From an uncultured Gammaproteobacteria bacterium (lineage in GTDB: Bacteria > Patescibacteriota > Patescibacteriia > Patescibacteriales > UBA12465): a DNA stretch of 64,000 nt. A model generated the notes under the pieces. That model did no database searches, was not told the DNA's origin, and saw only the letters and a program-made list of their open reading frames with translations. Of this stretch, positions 3,774 to 36,392 are shown in pieces. The position numbers were made by a program, and so were the translations under genes. The DNA lies in assembly GCA_964570655.1 (NCBI GenBank), contig CAZMYU010000001.1, forward strand, positions 65,454-129,453, in the 5' to 3' direction. Every line of letters starts with the position of its first letter. The stretch's first letter is position 1.

Positions 3774-4847
3774 TTATTTCTTGGCAGTCGACCACCGCAC
3801 GTCTTTGTTTCTCAGACGAGGAAGAAGGCGCTCCAATTTGCTCATACCTCCTGGGCCAATCAAACGTAAAAATAATCCTGTCCAAGCACTAATTTGAAAA
3901 ACGGTAATCAGTGATCCGGCCAAAACCACAAAGAGAGCCAAAACTATTATGCCAATTATGAAGACTCCCCAAAAAGCCGCAAACGAAAATAATTGGAAAA
4001 AAGAAGTCGCTAAAATAATAAAAGGAATGGCCAAAACAGCACAAGCAATAAAAACAGCAATGGTGGCCAAGAAACTAATCACAAACAAAATAATCGCCAT
4101 CTCCAAACTAATCAACCAATTCTTTTTAAACAATGAAAAACCAGACCGCAAGGCCGAACCAAAATCTTCTTTTTTGAGGGTCACATAAGCCAAGGCATAT
4201 TTAATAAGCAAGGAAAAAGAAATAGCCGTTGGAATGAGAATTATAAACAAAATCAAATAAATCCCCAAACTCAGAGCCTGACTACCAAAAATGAAAATGA
4301 TCGGCAAGCCAACAATTAGCACTAGCAAACTAACCACAGCCTTGCTAATAATATTGAGACCCAAGGAAGTCCAAAAATAAGGCTGAGAACTTTTCAAGCT
4401 AGAGCGCCAATTGAGATTGTCTTCCTGGCCCTTGATCACCTTGTCAGTATCAGCAATTAGAGTAATCTGAGAAGAAACCGCTAGCCACAACAAGAAGAAA
4501 CCAATAATCATAGTGCCCAAAAAGATGAGCAGTACCGCCAGACCAGTTAGGGCATTATATTTGAACAATTGATAAAAACCAGTAAAAAATCCTCCGCCCA
4601 AAACACCTTGGACCCAGATTTGATCAAAGCTTAGCAACCACTTTAATAATTTTTCCCGACTAGTGGCGGAACTCAGAATTTGGTATTCAGCCCCCAAACT
4701 GAGAATTGAAGCAAAAATACCAAAAAACCATAGGTACTTTTTTTGCCAGGTAATTTTCCAAGCCTGACCCAAAATTTGTCGATAAAAAAACATAAATTTT
4801 ATAGTTTCTTCGCTGGCTCCAAGTCTCAAAAAAGCGTCTTTTGACAA
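3774..4847 (-). CDS. Polytopic membrane protein, function unknown
   Basis: 357-aa ORF with about 8 hydrophobic helices. The track start is TTG at 4847; the first ATG is at 4793. The stop lies 3 nt upstream of the pilB start. Confidence 0.6.
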   Translation of the reverse strand: MSKDAFLRLGASEETIKFMFFYRQILGQAWKITWQKKYLWFFGIFASILSLGAEYQILSSATSREKLLKWLLSFDQIWVQGVLGGGFFTGFYQLFKYNALTGLAVLLIFLGTMIIGFFLLWLAVSSQITLIADTDKVIKGQEDNLNWRSSLKSSQPYFWTSLGLNIISKAVVSLLVLIVGLPIIFIFGSQALSLGIYLILFIILIPTAISFSLLIKYALAYVTLKKEDFGSALRSGFSLFKKNWLISLEMAIILFVISFLATIAVFIACAVLAIPFIILATSFFQLFSFAAFWGVFIIGIIVLALFVVLAGSLITVFQISAWTGLFLRLIGPGGMSKLERLLPRLRNKDVRWSTAKK

Positions 4848-6173: not shown

Positions 6174-7859
6174 ATGTTTTTAGAAAATCTCAAACAATTA
6201 ATCGGACAGGGGGTGTCAGAAGAATTTATTTCCTATCCTCCCAAACCAGAAATGGGCGATCTAGCCCTTAGTTTTTTTATGTCCGCCAAAAAACAAGGAC
6301 TAGAACCTCAAGCCCTAGCCCTGGGAACAGCTGAAAAACTAAGCCAGGATCCGGAAATAAACAAAATTTTTGCCAAAATCGTCGCCCTGGGTCCTTATGC
6401 TAATTTTTTTATAAACCCCGCCTATTTAGCCCAGGAAGTTTTGAGCGAAATCAAAAAAGACGGTGAGCTTTATGGTCGAAGTCGGCAAGAAAAGGACAAA
6501 AAAATAGTTATCGAATTTTCCAATGGTAATACCCACAAAGAATTCCATATTGGCCATCTCCGCAATATTTCTTTTGGCCAAGCTATTGTCAATATTTTGA
6601 ACTTCAATGGGTATCGAGCCATTCCCATCTCCTATATCAACGACTTTGGTATTCATGTCGCCAAAACTATCTGGCAATACCAAAAAGACATTAGGAAATA
6701 TAATGACTCTAGTGATCCAAAGGGATATTTACTGGGACAAATTTATGCTGAAGCTAGTAAAAACTCTAAGGATAACGAAATAGCCAAGGCGGAAATTTCT
6801 GAAACCATGAAACAAATCGAAGGTCGACGCGGGCCACTCTGGCGACTATTTAAAAAAACCAGAAGATGGAGTATCAAATATTTTGCCCAAATCTATAAAG
6901 AACTTAATTTGCATTTTCGCAAAACATTTTATGAGAGTCGAGTCATCAAACGTGGCTGGCAAATAGTCGACGAGCTGATAGCCAAAAATATTCTAATCAA
7001 AAGCCAAGGAGCTATTATTGCTGATCTCTCCAACTATAACCTAGGGGTCCTTCCGATCATTAGAAGCGATGGCACGGCTCTTTACCCGGTAGCTGATTTA
7101 GCCCTGGCAAAAGAAAAATACCAAAAATTCAAAATGGACGAATCAATCTATGTAGTCGATATTCGCCAAAGTTTATATTTTCAACAATTATTCAAAATCT
7201 TGGAATTGTCCGGACAAAAGAATGTGGCCATGCGTCAATTACCTTATGAATTTGTTTCGCTTCCCCAAGGACTCATGTCTTCTCGGGAAGGCAATGTAAT
7301 TTCCTATCATGAATTTTCTCAAACTCTCAAAGCCAAGATTTATGCCGAAACAAAATTTCGCCATCCTAATTGGCCAGAAGATCAGATTAATGATACGGCC
7401 GAAAAAATTGCTCTCGCCACTATTAAATTTGAAATGCTCAAAGTATCGCCCCAAAAAATTATCGTTTTTGATATGACCGAGGCCTTGAGATTTGATGGCT
7501 ACACGGTGGTCTATCTACTCTATACGGTCGCTCGAATTAATAGCATCTTTAGAAAAGCCAAACTCTCAGCTAAAATAAAGGGGGGATTCTTAGGCACCGA
7601 AATCGAAAAAAATCTACTCATTAAAATGGCCAAATTCCCCGAAGTCGTCAAAACCGCTGGAGCTACTTATGACCCGGCGATCATTACTCGTTATCTTTTT
7701 GAGCTCAGCCAAATTTTTAATGATTACTACAACCAGTCTCCAATCCTCAAATCAGAACCAGAGTTCCAGATGGCTCGCTTAGCCCTCCTGCAAGGAGTTT
7801 TACAAGTCCTCAAAAATGGTCTAGAGTTATTAAATATTTCAACTATTAATGAAATCTAA
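6174..7859 (+). CDS. argS: Arginyl-tRNA synthetase
   Basis: NGNTHKEFHIGHLRN HIGH region. C-terminal DALR-type anticodon-binding region (RFDGYTVVYLLYTVARINSI). Confidence 0.88.
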   Translation: MFLENLKQLIGQGVSEEFISYPPKPEMGDLALSFFMSAKKQGLEPQALALGTAEKLSQDPEINKIFAKIVALGPYANFFINPAYLAQEVLSEIKKDGELYGRSRQEKDKKIVIEFSNGNTHKEFHIGHLRNISFGQAIVNILNFNGYRAIPISYINDFGIHVAKTIWQYQKDIRKYNDSSDPKGYLLGQIYAEASKNSKDNEIAKAEISETMKQIEGRRGPLWRLFKKTRRWSIKYFAQIYKELNLHFRKTFYESRVIKRGWQIVDELIAKNILIKSQGAIIADLSNYNLGVLPIIRSDGTALYPVADLALAKEKYQKFKMDESIYVVDIRQSLYFQQLFKILELSGQKNVAMRQLPYEFVSLPQGLMSSREGNVISYHEFSQTLKAKIYAETKFRHPNWPEDQINDTAEKIALATIKFEMLKVSPQKIIVFDMTEALRFDGYTVVYLLYTVARINSIFRKAKLSAKIKGGFLGTEIEKNLLIKMAKFPEVVKTAGATYDPAIITRYLFELSQIFNDYYNQSPILKSEPEFQMARLALLQGVLQVLKNGLELLNISTINEI

Positions 7860-9249
7860 AAATATGGACAATAACACTTTTGATAAAATCGTCTCCTTAT
7901 GCAAACGACGAGGTTTTGTTTTTCCGTCTTCCGAAATCTATGGAGGCTTTCAAGCGGTTTATGATTTTGGTCCCTATGGAGTCGAGCTAGCCAATAATAT
8001 CAAAAAGCTCTGGTGGCAAGAAATGGTCCAAAAACGAGATGACATTGTCGGGTTAGACTCGGCTATTTTTATGAGTCCGATTGTCTGGGAAGCCTCTGGC
8101 CATGTCACTGGATTTTCTGATCCACTGATTGAATGCAAAAAATGTCACCTGCGTCTTAGAGTTGATCAAGCTCTAGAAGAAATTGGAGTTTTCGCTGATG
8201 AAAAAATGTCCGAAGATGAAATCCGCCAAATTTTTTCTGAAAAAGGTGGCAAAATCAAATGCCCGGTCTGCGGAGCCAAAGATTTTACTGAGCCTCGAAA
8301 ATTCAATTTACTAGTTCAATCCAATCTAGGAAATTTTACCGGCGCTTTAGACAAGGAACCGGTTTATCTGCGCGGTGAAACCTGCCAAGGTATTTATATT
8401 AATTACAAAAACGTTCTCGATTCATCCCGGGTCAAAATTCCTTTTGGTATCGCCCAAATCGGTAAAGCCTTTAGAAACGAGATTACCGCCCGCCAATTTA
8501 TTTTTCGCACCAGAGAATTTGAACAAATGGAAATGCAATATTTCGTAGCCCCCGAAGATGAACTAAATGAATTTGAAAAACTCAAAGAAGCTCGGCTGGA
8601 TTTCTATACCAAACTAGGAATTAACCAGAAAAATTTAAAGTTTAAAAAGCATGAAAATTTGGTTTTCTATGCCAAGGCGGCTTTTGATATTGAATACAAA
8701 TTTCCCTGGGGCTTTGCCGAACTTGAGGGCATTCACGCTCGCGGTGATTATGATCTGAGCCGACATATGCAATTTTCCAAAGCTGATCTAAGTTATAAAG
8801 ATCCCAGTAGCGACAAAAAATTTATTCCCCATATTGTCGAATCTTCTTCTGGAGTTGGCCGGGTTTTCTTGGCTCTACTAGCTGAAGCCTATACCGAAGA
8901 AAAGCTAGAGGGTGACGAAGAACGCTTAGTCTTAAAGCTTCCCAAAAAACTGGCCCCGATTAAAGCCGCCATCTTCCCCTTGCTAAAAAATAAGCCCGAG
9001 CTCGTCAGTAAAGCCCGGGAAGTCTATGATGATTTGAAAATTAATCTAATGTGCGAATTTGATGATAATGGCAATATTGGCAAACGTTATCGTCGACAAG
9101 ATGAAATCGGCACGCCCTTTTGCCTTACTATTGATTTTGAATCACTTAAAGATAATGATGTCACTGTCCGCCATCGCGATTCTATGAAACAGGAAAGAAT
9201 AAAAATTACCGATTTGAAAGATTATTTAGAAAAGCAATTAAATTCTTAA
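7849..9249 (+). CDS. glyQS: Glycyl-tRNA synthetase (dimeric class II, GlyQS type)
   Basis: KRRGFVFPSSEIYGG..YDFGPYGVELANNIKKLWW plus a C-terminal anticodon-binding domain. An alternative ATG at 7864 would remove the overlap with argS. Confidence 0.93.
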   Translation: MKSKNMDNNTFDKIVSLCKRRGFVFPSSEIYGGFQAVYDFGPYGVELANNIKKLWWQEMVQKRDDIVGLDSAIFMSPIVWEASGHVTGFSDPLIECKKCHLRLRVDQALEEIGVFADEKMSEDEIRQIFSEKGGKIKCPVCGAKDFTEPRKFNLLVQSNLGNFTGALDKEPVYLRGETCQGIYINYKNVLDSSRVKIPFGIAQIGKAFRNEITARQFIFRTREFEQMEMQYFVAPEDELNEFEKLKEARLDFYTKLGINQKNLKFKKHENLVFYAKAAFDIEYKFPWGFAELEGIHARGDYDLSRHMQFSKADLSYKDPSSDKKFIPHIVESSSGVGRVFLALLAEAYTEEKLEGDEERLVLKLPKKLAPIKAAIFPLLKNKPELVSKAREVYDDLKINLMCEFDDNGNIGKRYRRQDEIGTPFCLTIDFESLKDNDVTVRHRDSMKQERIKITDLKDYLEKQLNS

Positions 9250-9264
9250 AAATCGCTAAAATTG

Positions 9265-9307
9265 AAAAAGCCCCAGGAATATTTCCTTTTGGGGCTTTTT
9301 TGTTTTT
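9265..9307. terminator. Intrinsic terminator between convergent genes
   Basis: AAAAGCCCC (9266-9274) pairs with GGGGCTTTT (9291-9299), then tttgttttt. Confidence 0.75.
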
Positions 9308-9321
9308 GGCGACTGGCCTTT

Positions 9322-9909
9322 CTATATCTTGGTGAAATAGATATACCTGTCGGTGCCGGGAATAACGGTTGAAAAAATTGTCGCACCCTTGGGCTCATTG
9401 GCATTGAATTTCAAGCCAGCTTCCGGTTTCACGGCAGAGCTTCTGTACACATAATAATTCATTATGATGGACTTATTGCCCTGGTAATCAACCTTTTCAA
9501 CAATCTTCACGTCAGCCACTACCTGACCACGAAGAATATTCTTAAACGAATACAGGTTTTTTTCTTTGTCCTGCATTGGATAATAATTCCCCCCCACAAT
9601 AACCGGCGGCTTGCCTTCAACCACAACCTTCCAGGCCATGTTAAGGTGGTCATCAATCATTTTTGGTGTAATCCGTGGTTTTTTTCCAGATTTAAATTTG
9701 CTAACGATAACTTCAAATTCTGCATTGTCAGCAAATAATTCCAAATGAGCTGGAATTTCTTTTTGAATGAAATCCGGAAAATTAATCAGCACCTTTGGAG
9801 CAAAAAACAAGCGCCTGTAAGAAGCAGAGTTTACCGTAACATCGCCCATGGCGGTTTTGATCTTGCGACCTTCAATCCCCAGAATGGGGAGTCCATCTGT
9901 AAGTGTCAT
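9322..9909 (-). CDS. Hypothetical protein (195 aa)
   Basis: Clean ORF with ordinary amino-acid composition between a terminator and an AT-rich upstream region. I recognise no family. Confidence 0.55.
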   Translation of the reverse strand: MTLTDGLPILGIEGRKIKTAMGDVTVNSASYRRLFFAPKVLINFPDFIQKEIPAHLELFADNAEFEVIVSKFKSGKKPRITPKMIDDHLNMAWKVVVEGKPPVIVGGNYYPMQDKEKNLYSFKNILRGQVVADVKIVEKVDYQGNKSIIMNYYVYRSSAVKPEAGLKFNANEPKGATIFSTVIPGTDRYIYFTKI

Positions 9910-10058
9910 TTCTTATTCTGTTATAAAGTTACGAAAAATTGTTTCAACTTAATTCCTAATAATATCATATTATCAATAATAAGTCAATAGTGGGGATTTT
10001 AGGTTAATTTTAAGATAAATTTAGGCTAATTTTAAAGGTTAATTCTTATAATTGGGGC

Positions 10059-10958
10059 ATGATTCCTAGCAAAAGAAAACAAAGAAAAAGACGCCAAATA
10101 CTAATAATTGGCCTAATAGTGGTTTCCACTACCCTGTGCTATTTATCTCTACGAGAATTAAAACACCAAGAAATCAAGCCAAGCCCCCAATTAACAGTTG
10201 ATTTCTTTGACATTGGCCAAGGAGACGCTACCCTAATCATTACCCCCTATAATCAAAAGATCTTAATTGACGGCGGACCGGATGGCAAAATTCTAGAGAA
10301 ATTAAATAGTGTTAATAATTTTTTTGATCGGCATTTAAATCTCATCATATCCACTCATCCCCATGCCGACCACCTCAGCGGACTCATTCCAGTTTTGCAA
10401 AACTATCAAGTCGATCAAATACTTTATGGCCCACCCGGGGCCAAGCCTTCCGGATTATTTAGACAATTTCAAAGCATCGCCCAAGAAAAACAATTTAATT
10501 TTAGAGAAATAAATAGCCCGCAAAATATCAATTTAGGTCCCAATTGTTTATTGGCCATCATCTATCCGCTGGGACCAAAAACTAGCAAAAGCGCCAATGA
10601 TCTCGGACTAGTGAGTCGTCTAGATTGTCTGGGACATCAATTTTTGTTTACTGCTGATGTCGAAGCCAAGGCCGAAAAAGAAATTATTAATTCGGGAATA
10701 AGTATTCAAGCCGAGGTTTTAAAAGTCGGTCATCACGGCTCCAAAACTTCTTCGGACTTAAATTTTTTAAAAGAAATCCGACCCAGTCTAGCTTTTATTT
10801 CAGTGAGTGCGGACAATAAGTACCGCGAACCAGCCCCAGAAACCTTAGAAAAATTCAATCAACTGGGAATAAAAATCTGGCGAAGCGATCTAGACGGTGA
10901 TTTGCAAGTAATTGCCAGCGACCAGGGGCTTTATACTAAAAAACCCCAGTTTCATTGA
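10059..10958 (+). CDS. ComEC/Rec2-related metallo-beta-lactamase-fold protein (TM anchor + MBL domain only)
   Basis: N-terminal TM helix, then DIGQGDATLI, HPHADHLSG and KVGHHGSKTSS, the motifs of the ComEC C-terminal MBL domain. Confidence 0.8.
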   Translation: MIPSKRKQRKRRQILIIGLIVVSTTLCYLSLRELKHQEIKPSPQLTVDFFDIGQGDATLIITPYNQKILIDGGPDGKILEKLNSVNNFFDRHLNLIISTHPHADHLSGLIPVLQNYQVDQILYGPPGAKPSGLFRQFQSIAQEKQFNFREINSPQNINLGPNCLLAIIYPLGPKTSKSANDLGLVSRLDCLGHQFLFTADVEAKAEKEIINSGISIQAEVLKVGHHGSKTSSDLNFLKEIRPSLAFISVSADNKYREPAPETLEKFNQLGIKIWRSDLDGDLQVIASDQGLYTKKPQFH

Positions 10959-11006
10959 GGCAAATGGCTCAAATCGGCTGGGGATAATCTGGGTGTTACC
11001 CTAGTA

Positions 11007-11035
11007 TTGACAATGATTATTCTATATGGTACACT
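11007..11035 (+). promoter_or_regulatory. Sigma70-like promoter (TTGACA-17-TACACT with TGn)
   Basis: TTGACA 11007-11012, 17-nt spacer, tgGTACACT 11030-11035. No protein gene lies downstream on this strand. Confidence 0.5.
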
Positions 11036-11041
11036 TATCTA

Positions 11042-11188
11042 TCAATTTGAAAATAAATTAAAGACCAATTGAAACGGGGTCAGGCACGACAAGCATGGGG
11101 ATTTTTCTCCCACGGTTTTGGGGCGCGAGCTCTTTAAATACGTGGAAGAAAACTTTCTTGCCTATCCCGTTTGAGTTGGTCTTTTTTG
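11042..11188 (+). ncRNA. Candidate orphan structured small RNA (family unknown)
   Basis: Lies between convergent CDSs. AAGACCAATTGAAACGGG (11061-11078) pairs with CCCGTTTGAGTTGGTCTT (11166-11183; 16 of 18) followed by a T-run. The GC-rich interior has at least 3 local hairpins. Confidence 0.4.
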
Positions 11189-11192
11189 TTTA

Positions 11193-11246
11193 GGTGTCTG
11201 GCCTGCCTGCCGGCAGGCAGGCACCCCTCATTTGTGGCCTGACACC
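11193..11246. repeat. GC-rich nested palindrome (likely terminator / REP-like element)
   Basis: Perfect 22-nt palindrome GCCTGCCTGCCGGCAGGCAGGC (11201-11222) sits inside the imperfect arms GGTGTCTGGCC / GGCCTGACACC. Confidence 0.6.
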
Positions 11247-11251
11247 AGCAG

Positions 11252-13102
11252 TTAATTCTGAGTACTAGTAGAATTATTAATCAAACCGGAAGAGCTAGAG
11301 GTAGCCGAGACACCCAGAAGACAAACCTCTTGCCAAGGGACATAATGAGAAGAAAATCTCTGGCTAACTTTGTTTTCATCAGAAGCTCCCGGTTTATAGG
11401 TAACCACATAATCAAAATAAGCATCAGCTCCATTATGCGCCTTTTCGGTGCATTTTTTTTCGCCTGGCTTCAAATCGGTCGTTTCCACAATTCTAGTTGG
11501 CGCCGGTTTTACAATATTATAAATAGTCGGCTTAGATACTTCGATCTTCCGTCCATCACTCACTCCCCAAAAATCAAAATAAATATCATTGCCAGAAATT
11601 CGCGATTGAATAATCACATAATTTCCAGTATCGTTAACAAAACGAAAATCTGGCTTGGGAATATAAATCGTCGCATCCATACCAGCCGGCTCATAATAAG
11701 CCACCCGATAAGAATGATTGCGTCGTTCAGTAATCGGAAGACCCGAATAAAGAGCGGCTCGAAAAACAGTAGTGCCAATCTGACACAAACCACCACCAAA
11801 CTCTGGGATAGTTTTGTTATCTTTAATAACTAATTCTGGCAAATAGCCAGATTTTTCATCAACATCGCCCAATACCTTGACCAAGGAAAATTCTTCCCCG
11901 GGCTTTAGCAGCGTTCCATTAACTGCGGCGGCGCCTACTTTGATATTATGGCGACGATTGGCTGGCGAACCAGCAAAATTAGAATGGCCAGTCCCGATTA
12001 TTTCACGCACCTCAAACTCATTAGGATTAATGGAATCTTCGGCCTTCACAACATTAACCAGTAAAACTAGTTTGCTTTGTCGACTCTTAGCAAAATTATC
12101 AATAATTAGATCGACGGTTTTAGCGATGTCCAAAGACAAGCCATCATTTTTGGACTGAAAGCTAGTGACCCGACCATTTTTGATTTCAAATCTAGTAATT
12201 TGCGGCTGAGAATCTATTTTGCTAGCTATTTCTGTTTTCAAATAATTTTCCAATTTGCTTCTATCAACTTTTAGCTCCACCGATTTAAAACGATCCTTGG
12301 AAAAAGACAACCAAGAAACTATAATTTTTTTATCAATTTTAAAACTCTGATTAAGAGCGCTGGTTCCGGTGGCTTGATATTCTAAACTTAGAGGGGCCAA
12401 GTCCAAAAAACTCTTGGCCAGCCCATTGGGATCAGAAATCTGACTTTTGAAAATTTCTGGCTCCACAATAGTACTTTCCAAAATTATAGGTCGATTAACA
12501 AAATCAGCCAAATTATCTTGGAGATCAGAAATAGCTGTTGGATAATCCAAAGATTCACCGGCTTGCTCTGATTTTACGCCCAGCTCCAAAATATCTTTGT
12601 CTTCTTTGATAATTTCCAGGCTCGCATTTTGCATAGTCACTTTCAAGGGATCAAACTCGCTCAGCAAGGCCTGGCTAAAAATATCTTGATCAAAATTATA
12701 AACTGGAGTCAGACGGGTACCAAAAAAATAAGCTTTTAAAACCGGCCAAAAATTAGAACCAGAATTGCCTCGACCATAACCCAGGACTAGATTAGTACTT
12801 TTGGGCTCGTCAAAGCTCAACCAATTTTCCGCCAATTCACTACCCGGAGGCCAAATTAACAATAAGGGTTTTTTGGTATCTTTGTAAAAAACGGTGACCG
12901 CCGAAAAATTATCAGCAATACGCGAGTTGATGGCGCTGGCGACCTGTGCCTGATTTAAGCCCGACAAATCTAATTCACCCAAATAAACATGCGGGTAAAC
13001 CCGACCGGCATATTCTTTTTTTAAAAAATTATAAAAACCCATGGCTGTTAACAAAATAAGCACAACAACAATGGCGATAATTAATAATATTTTCTTTCGC
13101 AT
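11252..13102 (-). CDS. VanW-domain protein (membrane-anchored, cell-wall associated)
   Basis: N-terminal TM helix. C-terminal region GGGLCQIGTTVFRAALYSGLPITERRNHSYRVAYYEPAGMDATIY is typical of VanW. Confidence 0.85.
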   Translation of the reverse strand: MRKKILLIIAIVVVLILLTAMGFYNFLKKEYAGRVYPHVYLGELDLSGLNQAQVASAINSRIADNFSAVTVFYKDTKKPLLLIWPPGSELAENWLSFDEPKSTNLVLGYGRGNSGSNFWPVLKAYFFGTRLTPVYNFDQDIFSQALLSEFDPLKVTMQNASLEIIKEDKDILELGVKSEQAGESLDYPTAISDLQDNLADFVNRPIILESTIVEPEIFKSQISDPNGLAKSFLDLAPLSLEYQATGTSALNQSFKIDKKIIVSWLSFSKDRFKSVELKVDRSKLENYLKTEIASKIDSQPQITRFEIKNGRVTSFQSKNDGLSLDIAKTVDLIIDNFAKSRQSKLVLLVNVVKAEDSINPNEFEVREIIGTGHSNFAGSPANRRHNIKVGAAAVNGTLLKPGEEFSLVKVLGDVDEKSGYLPELVIKDNKTIPEFGGGLCQIGTTVFRAALYSGLPITERRNHSYRVAYYEPAGMDATIYIPKPDFRFVNDTGNYVIIQSRISGNDIYFDFWGVSDGRKIEVSKPTIYNIVKPAPTRIVETTDLKPGEKKCTEKAHNGADAYFDYVVTYKPGASDENKVSQRFSSHYVPWQEVCLLGVSATSSSSGLINNSTSTQN

Positions 13103-13105
13103 ATT

Positions 13106-13333
13106 TTAATTTTCAGGCTGGTCAGCCTTTAATACCTCTTTTAAAATATCTTGAGCTAATTCTTGGTTGTAACTAGACAAATCACGTTGCGGATGAATAG
13201 AAAAAAAATAAACAGCCCCAACCACTAAGTCGCTGGGGGCTTTATCGGCTGGCCAATAAAAAAAACGGCCGCTGTCATCACTGAAGACCGCTTGGCCATC
13301 TCGGAGTTCATTAAATTTTAGAGAAATAGTCAT
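13106..13333 (-). CDS. Small hypothetical protein (75 aa)
   Basis: ATG at 13333 lies directly after the hsp20 stop (13335). The longer track ORF would overlap hsp20. Confidence 0.45.
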   Translation of the reverse strand: MTISLKFNELRDGQAVFSDDSGRFFYWPADKAPSDLVVGAVYFFSIHPQRDLSSYNQELAQDILKEVLKADQPEN

Positions 13334-13334
13334 A

Positions 13335-13733
13335 TCAATCTTTAGATTGGATAAAAATCTTATTGCCAGTATCCTTTTTTTTGTGCAAAACAATACTCAA
13401 AACCCCATTCTCGATATAAGCCTCAACTTTTCGATCATCAACGGCTTGAGGCAAAACGATTGACCGAGAAAATGCACCCCAATAACATTCTTGGTACAAA
13501 TAATTAACATCTCGTTGAGTGAGATCAGATTCTCTCTTGCCTTTAATGGTGAGCAAATCATTATCAAGAGCAATACTTAAATCATCAGTCCGCACCCCGG
13601 CCACTCCAGCTCTTACTATTATCTTATCATCTTCACTGTAAACATCAACCAAAAGTTCAGCCTCGTTTAAATCGGGACTAAGCCAATTATCATTACTAGG
13701 ATGCTTAATAGCTTTTTCTTGAAATAAAGGCAT
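13335..13733 (-). CDS. Hsp20/alpha-crystallin small heat-shock protein
   Basis: ACD pattern ..DLSIALDNDLLTIKGKRE..FSRSIVLPQAVDDRKVEAYIENGVLSIVLHKK. Confidence 0.9.
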   Translation of the reverse strand: MPLFQEKAIKHPSNDNWLSPDLNEAELLVDVYSEDDKIIVRAGVAGVRTDDLSIALDNDLLTIKGKRESDLTQRDVNYLYQECYWGAFSRSIVLPQAVDDRKVEAYIENGVLSIVLHKKKDTGNKIFIQSKD

Positions 13734-13887: not shown

Positions 13888-13960
13888 TGCGTCCAGGAGG
13901 ATTCGAACCTCCGACCATCTCCTTAAGAGGGAGCAGCTCTACCAGCTGAGCTATGGACGC
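13888..13960 (-). tRNA. tRNA-Lys (anticodon CTT)
   Basis: Cloverleaf GCGTCCA..GCTCC-CTCTTAA-GGAGA..GGAGG-TTCGAAT-CCTCC-TGGACGC-A. No encoded CCA. Confidence 0.9.
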
Positions 13961-13982
13961 TTAATTATTTTGGAACACATAG

Positions 13983-14056
13983 TAGCTGGGGAGGGACTTG
14001 AACCCTCGACCTCGACGTTATGAGTGTCGCGCTCTAACCACCTGAGCTACCCAGCC
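13983..14056 (-). tRNA. tRNA with CAT anticodon (elongator Met or Ile2/lysidine; undecided)
   Basis: GGCTGGG..CGACA-CTCATAA-CGTCG..GAGGG-TTCAAGT-CCCTC-CCCAGCT-A. It lacks the initiator features (no C1xA72, no GGG/CCC anticodon stem). Confidence 0.85.
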
Positions 14057-14248
14057 TCAATTATAATATTTTTATATAGTGCTTGCACTTCGTAGCTCAA
14101 CGCGCTAGCGTTGAGCGAAAACAACTAACTTCTGCCCTTCTTCGCCAAAGGCTACGAAGGGCACTACTTCGCTTCTCTAAGCGTAGTTACACTATTTTAA
14201 TTAGTGCGTGCACTTCGTAGCTCAACGCGCTAGCGTTGAGCGAAGTAG
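14057..14248 (-). repeat. GC-rich multi-hairpin spacer / 3' trailer of tRNA-Arg (copy 2 of trailer repeat, with an extra hairpin)
   Basis: Same unit as 13745-13887, plus an additional CTCAACGCGCTAGCGTTGAG hairpin (14086-14118). Confidence 0.85.
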
Positions 14249-14322
14249 TGCACCCAGCAGGATTTGAACCCACAACCTCTTGGTCCGAAGCCAAGCGCTC
14301 TATCCAGTTGAGCTATGAGTGC
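14249..14322 (-). tRNA. tRNA-Arg (anticodon TCG)
   Basis: GCACTCA..CTTGG-CTTCGGA-CCAAG..GTGGG-TTCAAAT-CCTGC-TGGGTGC-A. No encoded CCA. Confidence 0.9.
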
Positions 14323-35261: not shown

Positions 35262-35334
35262 AGCGGGTAAGGGGAATCGAACCCCTCTCTCCAGCTTGGA
35301 AGGCTAGCATAATAAACCACTATACGATACCCGC
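35262..35334 (-). tRNA. tRNA-Gly (anticodon TCC)
   Basis: GCGGGTA..CTAGC-CTTCCAA-GCTGG..AGGGG-TTCGATT-CCCCT-TACCCGC-T. Weak D-stem. No CCA. Confidence 0.85.
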
Positions 35335-35415
35335 TTTCATCCCGTTACACGGGACGAATTAAAAATTAATAATTAATAATTAAAAATTTCTAATTTTTCA
35401 TTGTTAATTGTTAAT

Positions 35416-35452
35416 TTCCTAATCGGCTTTTTATCAAAAGCCGATTAGGAAA
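35416..35452. other. Hairpin immediately 3' of tRNA-Leu
   Basis: CCTAATCGGCTTTT-tatc-AAAAGCCGATTAGG. Confidence 0.6.
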
Positions 35453-35454
35453 AG

Positions 35455-35538
35455 TGCCGCGGGAGGGAATCGAACCCTCACGATATCGCTATCACAGGAT
35501 TTTAAGTCCAGCGCGTCTACCAGTTCCGCCACCGCGGC
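35455..35538 (-). tRNA. tRNA-Leu (anticodon TAA), long variable arm
   Basis: GCCGCGG..CTGGA-CTTAAAA-TCCTG-(variable arm TGATAGCGATATCG)-GAGGG-TTCGATT-CCCTC-CCGCGGC-A. Confidence 0.9.
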
Positions 35539-36006: not shown

Positions 36007-36392
36007 TGGTGGAGATGATGGGATTTGAACCCATGTCTAATAAGATCAAAAAAATAGTTCTACAAAAAATAGTTCGATTTGATATTTAACGATTTTCTAG
36101 AAACCGAACAAAAGCGAAAATCGCTAGCCGACTTTGTTTAGATTTCAAAGAGTCAGCGCCCTTGAAATCGATCTCCATAAAATGACACCACTTTAGCTCT
36201 ATGGAGCCTCAGGCCAAGTGATGGTAGCGGCTATTTAAGCGGCTACGGTCGCCATGGCTGGAACCTTCCATGAGAAGGCCAACTTAGACGCAAAGTTTTT
36301 GACATTTTTCAATGTGGATCAGTTTTACGCGGATAATCCAGCGCGTTTTGCGTATTTTTTTGATGAACTCATTATCGAAACCTGTCATCCCC
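36007..36392 (-). ncRNA. ssrA: tmRNA (SsrA)
   Basis: 5' GGGGATGACAGGTTTCGA.. and 3' ..GGGTTCAAATCCCATCATCTCCACCA. Acceptor has G3:U70. Lies 61 nt downstream of smpB on the same strand. Confidence 0.88.

Follow-up and report, generated by a model that had tools for sequence, protein, structure and literature searches.

The question raised by this locus is whether the 293-bp spacer separating the stop codons of two convergent genes, a ComEC-type metallo-beta-lactamase-fold (MBL-fold) gene on the + strand and a VanW gene on the - strand, holds an RNA gene of its own and, if so, how that RNA acts. The locus lies in a 64,000-nt stretch of contig CAZMYU010000001.1 (hereafter the window; all coordinates without another label are window positions), and the element under study is a promoter-to-terminator unit at 11007-11188 (+) that specifies a non-coding RNA of about 147 nt. 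An earlier note, made from the sequence alone, had described it as an orphan unit for a structured RNA lying between these two genes, and both flanking genes were confirmed (Table 1). Judged on fold, substitution pattern and signals, the unit is very probably a genuine and independently transcribed gene for a structured small RNA (sRNA). The best explanation overall, to which a probability of about 0.5 was assigned, is that this separately transcribed RNA serves as a protein-binding decoy or scaffold.

The + strand of the unit folds as a single rod (minimum free energy -62.9 kcal/mol, z = -7.75; none of 200 dinucleotide shuffles reached this stability), the fold of the - strand being weaker (-46.7 kcal/mol), and the rods of the homologs are also very stable (-43 to -60 kcal/mol). 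The RNAalifold consensus was computed on alignment A3, which contains the 19 distinct sequences of the family, all from one Falkowbacteria-type clade and many of them near-identical; it is one interrupted hairpin of 42 pairs, in which 98.5% of the 798 cells are paired. Compensatory changes were found in 10 of the 42 pairs, where 28 cells have changed on both sides; given the close relatedness just mentioned, these 28 cells represent about a dozen independent events. None of 500 shuffles reached that level, and when the 3' partners were slid by 1-3 columns as a control, double changes occurred in only 1-4 pairs. In the pair table, about 121 cells are G-U and 3 are A-C, and covariance model R1 (built from A3) scores 122.8 bits on the + strand versus 52 bits on the - strand, which argues that selection acts on the RNA of the + strand and not on a DNA palindrome.

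Not all of the helices that had been proposed by eye agree with this consensus. The closing helix, in which 11061-11078 was said to pair with 11166-11183 at 16 of 18 positions, comprises 16 Watson-Crick pairs, one G-U and one G.G, and the AGGCA/TGCCT helix (P3 in Table 1) is real, with G-C to C-G covariation in 4 sequences. Two inner hairpins are contradicted by the covarying helix P5, which uses the same bases: TGGGG..CTCCCA, and AAGAAA-ac-TTTCTT, whose 2-nt loop is moreover sterically impossible. The CCACG/CGTGG helix holds in part, its ACG/CGU pairs being invariant while the adjoining pair is a C.A mismatch in most relatives. The structured RNA of ~145 nt described in the earlier note is therefore retained in size and nature, but its multi-hairpin inner core is replaced by one continuous interrupted rod.

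Variation is unequally distributed along this rod. Invariant stretches of 16 + 10 + 9 nt lie on both strands around an asymmetric internal loop, while P1 and P5 change freely. All 19 sequences share the 16-nt block CACGACAAGCATGGG, which is also one of the five blocks found identical in all sequences of the first alignment of the gap between the two genes (CACGACAAGCATGGG, ACGGTTTT, CGT, AACTTTCTTG and TATCCCGTT). Helix P5 occurs, for example, as UUUUUUU/AAAAAAA, UUUUCUCU/AGAGAAAA, UUCUGCUU/AAGGAGAA and UCCUU/AAGGA, and the apical tetraloop, which varies freely, as GCGA, UCAC, UCGC, UCUC, CACG, UCCG, UCUG or UACG. Within the 3' strand AACUUUCUUG-CC-UAUCCCGUU, only two positions vary, both in P3, and these covary. 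No prediction pairs CGACAAGCAU (11087-11096), which forms the 5' side of the internal loop; the following GGG(GA) and the opposite CUUUCUUG are invariant, and their predicted pairing is rich in G-U pairs and of low probability (0.01-0.58). The GGG / GA pairings beside the loop, which never vary, are likewise predictions. The internal loop is conserved on both strands far beyond what pairing needs.

A strong sigma-70-type promoter is predicted, from its sequence and conservation, to drive the transcript of ~147 nt. It was described in the earlier note as TTGACA-17-TGgTACACT; it is present, its spacing falls within the 16-18 bp range used to recognize such promoters, and it is kept as TTGACA-N17-TGaTAyAnT in all promoter-bearing relatives. 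The proposal that the closing helix doubles as an intrinsic terminator was also borne out: P1 (11 bp) ends at 11184, inside a T6-G-T3 tract (11182-11191) into which its 3' strand runs directly, and CTTTTTT is kept in all 19 sequences. This terminator is omitted by a simple terminator scan, its "loop" being the rest of the RNA. The match to the covariance model covers 11054-11191 (+). Some 25 nt of A-rich leader separate the -10 element from the inverted repeat, and their sequence is not conserved between subgroups.

The unit occupies a fixed syntenic position. Even the closest homologs of the window's MBL protein share no more than 41-48% identity with it, and the contigs that encode them keep the MBL gene (+) and the convergent VanW gene (-) on either side of a gap of 250-320 bp. 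In the alignment of these gaps, the promoter, the RNA body and the T tract are conserved, and the leader and the DNA past the terminator cannot be aligned. Pattern scans, which demanded exact conserved blocks and would miss more divergent relatives, returned 6 true loci and 3 chance matches in the genome collection and 13 true loci and 2 chance matches in the metagenome collection. The six genome loci belong to three Candidatus Falkowbacteria, two members of the "Patescibacteria group" and one 93-kb contig binned as Gammaproteobacteria. Samples in which contigs of the family occur include JGI 3300014204, 3300014205 and 3300037067, the Ga0265297 samples and the activated-sludge assembly UOWG01. 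The order MBL, sRNA, VanW is kept at every RNA-bearing locus wherever the contig extends to the flanking genes; the flanking proteins are only 34-50% identical to those of the window over their full length, as against 73-82% for the sRNA. MBL homologs from Yanofskybacteria and from two contigs of the Candidate Phyla Radiation (CPR; L026 and L042) have neither a VanW neighbour nor the RNA, an Uhrbacteria contig (L024) ends just past its MBL gene and is uninformative on the RNA, and no relative of the sRNA was found in phage and plasmid collections. Within the reach of exact-block scans and synteny, the family appears confined to a Candidatus Falkowbacteria-type clade of Patescibacteria (CPR).

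In the explanation that is preferred here, the RNA would act in trans, either as a decoy for a protein or as the scaffold of a ribonucleoprotein. The covarying outer helices P1 and P5 and the freely varying apical loop would provide the scaffolding, and the working part would be the invariant asymmetric internal loop, 5' CGACAAGCAUGGG opposite 3' CUUUCUUG, together with the invariant P2 and P3. Protein binding is favoured because the scaffold covaries, the tip is free, and the internal loop and its flanking helices are invariant on both strands, as are the contact loops of signal recognition particle (SRP) RNA. The presence of the unit wherever the locus is present, its tandem duplication in two genomes, and the finding of no complementary target beyond the null expectation in the 64-kb window, were also counted for protein binding. 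That the RNA works by binding a protein rather than by base pairing is nevertheless advanced tentatively, at slightly less than even odds, a share of which falls to the 6S-like version considered below; the most concrete candidate partner would be the RNA polymerase holoenzyme, sequestered by a miniature 6S-like decoy.

Several points count against a decoy or scaffold. No candidate partner protein is encoded next to the sRNA, and the invariant internal loop could equally be a base-pairing seed or a ligand pocket. Targets were searched for in 64 kb of this genome and, for the relatives, in the immediate neighbourhood; the ends and abundance of the transcript, and any partner, are predictions; and the compensatory changes reduce to the dozen or so independent events mentioned above.

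Upstream of the promoter, an operator-like direct repeat stands out (Table 1), which occurs once in the window. In relatives, an invariant TCTGTGGATAAnCTGTGTA lies immediately upstream of the -35 hexamer, which the second repeat abuts (e.g. L010 ~3895-3915), and their operator region reads CTGTGGATAAnCTGTGTA, its window counterpart being the region 10970-11015. In the window version, CTGGGGATAATCTGGGTG (10978-10995), both repeats bear the same T-to-G change relative to the relatives, and the element is 11 bp (one helical turn) farther from the -35 hexamer. Direct repeats at an 11-bp register abutting the -35 hexamer are a layout typical of DnaA arrays and of OmpR/PhoB-type regulators. Within the element of the relatives lies TGTGGATAA, which is the DnaA-box consensus TTATCCACA read on the opposite strand, so that the first repeat includes a DnaA-box 9-mer, matched at 9/9 positions in most relatives and at 8/9 in the window (TGGGGATAA). 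As a sequence match to the 9-mer TTATNCACA, the box TTATCCACA is perfect in 15/17 distinct promoter regions, the exceptions being the window (TTATCCCCA) and L027 (TTATCAACA). A replication origin at this box was considered and rejected: GC skew is monotonic across the window and the 64 kb show no general excess of DnaA boxes. Because the window has neither an origin-like turn of GC skew nor an enrichment of DnaA boxes, the element is read as an operator and not as an origin. On its sequence it fits two readings equally well, a DnaA box or a site for a tandem-repeat-binding regulator, and whichever factor binds the upstream repeat would probably modulate expression of the sRNA.

Table 1. Coordinates of the sRNA unit, its structural parts and its flanking genes in the window.
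Feature	Positions	Strand	Remarks
MBL-fold (ComEC-type) gene	10059-10958	+	left flank of the sRNA unit
Operator-like direct repeat, CTGKGGA-N4-CTGKGKA, 11-bp register	10978-10995	+	invariant within otherwise variable upstream DNA
-35 hexamer, TTGACA	11007-11012	+	invariant in all promoter-bearing relatives
Extended -10, TG-g-TACACT	11027-11035	+	17 bp past -35; TGaTAyAnT in relatives
Predicted transcript, ~147 nt	11042-11188	+	5' end placed 6-9 nt past -10 and 3' end within the U tract, both by prediction
A-rich 5' leader	11042-11059	+	variable; A run can pair with the 3' U tail, lengthening the closing helix
Closing arm, 5' strand	11060-11086	+	P1 11060-11070, P2 11072-11080, P3 AGGCA 11082-11086; six pairs with compensatory changes
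P1	11060-11070 with 11174-11184	+	basal helix; compensatory changes, e.g. U-A to C-G, A-U to G-C
G.G mismatch		+	between P1 and P2
P2	11072-11080 with 11164-11172	+	compensatory A-U to G-C in L027
P3	11082-11086 with 11159-11163	+	AGGCA/UGCCU becomes AGCCA/UGGUU
Asymmetric internal loop, 5' side, CGACAAGCAUGGG(GA)	11087-11101	+	invariant; 7-10 nt unpaired in all predicted folds
Apical arm	11102-11146	+	U/C run 11103-11108, C.A or C-G, ACG 11112-11114, 2x2 loop, UUU, GGGC 11121-11124
Apical arm, remainder		+	tetraloop GCGA 11125-11128, GCUC 11129-11132, AAA, CGU 11141-11143
P5, U/C run with purine run	11103-11108 with 11147-11152	+	four pairs with compensatory U-A to C-G changes
3' strand AACUUUCUUG-CC-UAUCCCGUU	11151-11171	+	nearly invariant; 3' side of internal loop and 3' strands of P3 and P2
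3' strand of P1 and U tract (intrinsic terminator)	P1 11174-11184; U 11182-11187, then G, UUU; to 11191	+
VanW gene	11252-13102	-	right flank of the sRNA unit, convergent

Several rearrangements of the locus were observed among relatives. The sRNA gene is tandemly duplicated in two genomes (L016 4097-4416 (-) and L021 1750-2085 (+)), the second copy beginning 45-60 nt past the first terminator and having no recognisable promoter, which suggests read-through and processing of a dimeric precursor. Locus L016 is the 93-kb contig CAZXEE010000003.1, deposited as "uncultured Gammaproteobacteria bacterium"; it carries the CPR-type block of MBL, sRNA and convergent VanW, with flanking proteins 40-49% identical to those of the window, and is probably misbinned or mislabelled. 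In L037 (1469-2731 (-)), and likewise in L017, two open reading frames (ORFs) are inserted between the sRNA and VanW, the sRNA staying beside MBL; one of them is type IV pilin-like, with the prepilin N-terminus FTLIELLVVIAIIGILA. One lineage has a Y1 transposase gene of the IS200/IS605 type (PF01797) immediately upstream of MBL (L013 2-211, L014 145-573).

The RNA was compared with known families using Rfam 15. At gathering thresholds, the whole window yielded a tmRNA and seven tRNAs only, with nothing at the sRNA site, and a scan of 20 related loci (140 kb) yielded only tRNAs and no SRP or 6S RNA. At E<=10, the 331-nt sRNA region gave only noise (snoRNA and miRNA-hairpin matches), as did two homologs (L010 and L001; generic miRNA hairpins), and in none of these three relaxed scans (window copy, L010 and L001) was there an SRP or 6S match. 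The impression formed by eye, that the RNA is recognisable neither as SRP RNA nor as 6S RNA nor as a riboswitch, thus agrees with a search that found no family even at E<=10. A literature search found nothing on 6S RNA, SRP RNA or sRNAs in CPR, nor on the conserved sequence blocks, and sRNAs go unmentioned in a recent review of CPR biology. The RNA was rated as a new family of a known general kind, the rod-shaped stand-alone bacterial RNAs, its conservation being unusually strong and its operator conserved as well. Lineage-restricted orphan structured sRNAs of the "motif" type have been described from comparative genomics by Breaker, Weinberg and others. The present RNA resembles them in being defined by conservation and covariation only, in one lineage, and in being unlinked to a downstream gene; it differs in its absence from Rfam 15, its conserved promoter, its operator-like repeat with a DnaA-box 9-mer, and its CPR host.

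Among the rival explanations, the one that survives best, although unlikely, is a trans-acting base-pairing sRNA, in which the invariant unpaired CGACAAGCAU(GGG) would be a seed for mRNAs, and the rod and U tail would give stability. The complement of this seed, AUGCUUGUCG, starts with a start codon. Such an sRNA would also suit the 7-10 nt that are single-stranded and never vary, and the gene's own promoter, Rho-independent terminator and apparently regulated operator. The tandem duplicates in two genomes are also in keeping with it, such duplicates being common for base-pairing sRNAs. However, the 64-kb window contains no site that matches the complement of the loop 15-mer with 3 mismatches or fewer, and among the duplexes with 94 translation-initiation regions the most stable reached -18.6 kcal/mol, which is also the median obtained with shuffled seeds. 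The seed would moreover sit inside an internal bulge of the rod, topologically poor for long duplexes, and would leave the invariance of both strands of the neighbouring helices unexplained. Finally, sRNAs of this type are not usually conserved among relatives as distant as these, whose flanking proteins share only ~45% identity.

A miniature 6S-type RNA, which is the polymerase version of protein binding, was considered a little less probable again. The rod would mimic an open promoter, with the internal loop as "central bubble", and would sequester the RNA polymerase holoenzyme until released by synthesis of a short product RNA on the 5' strand (template ~11072-11096). With 6S RNA (ssrS; RF00013, and lineage forms such as 6S-Flavo) the sRNA shares a stand-alone gene, a strong promoter, a rod and a conserved, poorly structured middle. 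Its 42 pairs form a rod in which both arms covary; the closing and apical arms, both broken by small loops, match the 6S architecture (PMC8876501), and they amount to ~25 bp-equivalents on either side of the loop, truncated 6S RNAs remaining functional (PMC8876501). The region of the loop never varies, and its fold is thermodynamically ill-defined (pair probabilities of 0.01-0.58 in P4). Sequence similarity across phyla is not expected of 6S RNAs, which are notoriously divergent. When the 5' strand of P2/P3 is blocked, 19/19 homologs refold to the same 7-bp helix (CAUGGGA with UAUCCCG), which recalls the "central bubble collapse helix" described for B. subtilis 6S-1 (PMC8876501). This alternative helix is, however, no better than those of shuffled loops (3-66% of shuffles are at least as stable); being indistinguishable from chance, it was not counted as evidence. 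Templating of product RNAs is a 6S feature for which the sRNA offers no evidence, and the Rfam 6S models had no match at E<=10 on three homologs. The core of ~125 nt and the transcript of ~147 nt are shorter than the ~160-200 nt of 6S RNAs. The bubble appears one-sided: 7-14 nt are open on the 5' strand versus 0-8 nt on the 3' strand, where CUUUCUUG is predicted to be largely paired, mostly by invariant G-U pairs of probability 0.01-0.58, whereas 6S RNAs require a large bubble with an open 3' strand for sigma region 2, the strand in which their -10-like element lies.

It is quite improbable that the unit is a ligand- or signal-sensing terminator gating antisense transcription into the convergent VanW gene, that is, a riboswitch-controlled antisense RNA, for which AspocR of Listeria, a B12-controlled antisense RNA, is the model. 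The promoter points toward the 3' end of the VanW gene, the invariant internal loop enclosed by helices has the look of an aptamer, and the closing helix is itself the terminator. Against this, most relatives have an extra terminator (A-run / hairpin / T-run) between the RNA and VanW, and the pilin-like gene of L037 and L017 is inserted there; moreover, the very stable rod shows no sign of an alternative anti-terminator pairing. A riboswitch or cis-acting leader of the usual kind was rejected separately, since no gene of the same strand follows it (the neighbour is convergent) and relatives have extra terminators or an insert on the opposite strand beyond the RNA.

A highly divergent SRP (4.5S) RNA is effectively excluded. 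The idea arises from GGUCAGG...AAGCA in the window copy, which resembles the domain IV motif of E. coli, GGUCAGGUCCGGAAGGAAGCAGCC; the 7-mer GGUCAGG and the AAGCA of that motif also occur in most relatives (the L010-type group). Like SRP RNA (4.5S, RF00169), the sRNA is a single long hairpin of similar size, with internal loops invariant on both strands, and it is very highly conserved, more so than its neighbours. Only 7 nt separate the two motifs, however, which leaves no room for the tetraloop helix, and the resemblance is neither conserved nor free of other pairing: AGGCA pairs with the 3' UGCCU, with compensatory changes, and the L001, L004 and L007 types read (A/C)AGCCA paired with UGGUU. 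The symmetric and asymmetric loops (AGG / AGCA) expected on either side of a short helix below the tetraloop, near the apex, are absent, AGG belonging to the covarying AGGCA helix; the apical tetraloop is not GNRA in relatives, which have 8 different loops; and the Rfam SRP covariance models gave no match at E<=10.

That there is no RNA gene here, the site holding only terminators of the flanking genes, a DNA palindrome or miniature transposable element (MITE), or a small-protein gene (ORF 11095-11193), is refuted: a site between convergent genes, a long inverted repeat flanked by an A run and a T run, and a 32-codon ORF opening at an invariant ATG would suit it, but the promoter is conserved and both the excess of G-U over A-C cells and the strand scores given above contradict it. 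The unit is not only a pair of terminators, as the relatives have separate terminator hairpins for both flanking genes, that of MBL upstream of the sRNA promoter and usually another between the RNA and VanW. Nor is it a repeated palindrome or MITE, being present as a single copy in the 64-kb window (blastn, and covariance model with filters off) and always at the same syntenic site. The earlier note had seen no ORF behind the promoter; the 32-codon ORF does exist, but it bears no signs of coding. It has 12, 15, 25, 32 or 34 codons in relatives, its changes are non-synonymous and follow RNA pairing, and it has no Shine-Dalgarno sequence, the sequence upstream being CACGACAAGC.

The surroundings of the unit are partly conserved as well. 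The gene block at 7849-13400 is shared with L001, L004, L010 and L012, though their MBL and VanW proteins are only 34-50% identical, and its order is ArgRS, a class II aminoacyl-tRNA synthetase (GlyRS-like), a hypothetical gene (-), MBL, sRNA, VanW, an ORF of ~71 aa, HSP20, tRNA and RNase Y; the hypothetical protein has 177-195 aa, is encoded on the - strand and has no Pfam match. Three clustered tRNA genes are found ~3 kb away from the sRNA (13888-14322 (-)), and a tmRNA gene (130.5 bits; 36007-36392 (-)) adjoins two tRNAs (35262-35538 (-)). Between the sRNA terminator and the VanW stop codon, the region 11193-11235 contains a GC-rich perfect palindrome of 22 bp, GCCTGCCTGCCGGCAGGCAGGC (11201-11222), which is peculiar to the window genome, the relatives having at that place terminators made of an AT-rich A-run / hairpin / T-run; on neither strand is it followed by a T run, and it therefore does not qualify as a canonical intrinsic terminator. 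It is this palindrome that is truly GC-rich: the GC-rich core which the earlier note attributed to the RNA is a weak feature, at 0.43-0.45 G+C versus ~0.39 for the window.

The sRNA looks important to the cell, being 73-82% identical where its neighbours' proteins stand at 34-50%, with an invariant promoter and operator. As a more speculative proposal, which we regard as doubtful, it may be a housekeeping-grade ribonucleoprotein RNA of Falkowbacteria-type CPR, either a one-sided mini 6S analogue or the RNA subunit of a new particle, with transcription wired to DnaA. If this were true, the perfect DnaA box at the promoter would couple the status of replication initiation to a global RNA regulator, in a host with very few transcription factors. 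In any case, the operator suggests a link between DnaA, or another repeat-binding regulator, and RNA-based control. CPR/Patescibacteria account for a large share of bacterial diversity and have tiny genomes with few regulators, and riboregulation in them is almost unexplored. Covariance model R1 can be used to annotate a region that is now blank in these genomes, and the sRNA is a concrete, clonable candidate, which could be the first CPR riboregulator or part of a new RNA-protein particle.

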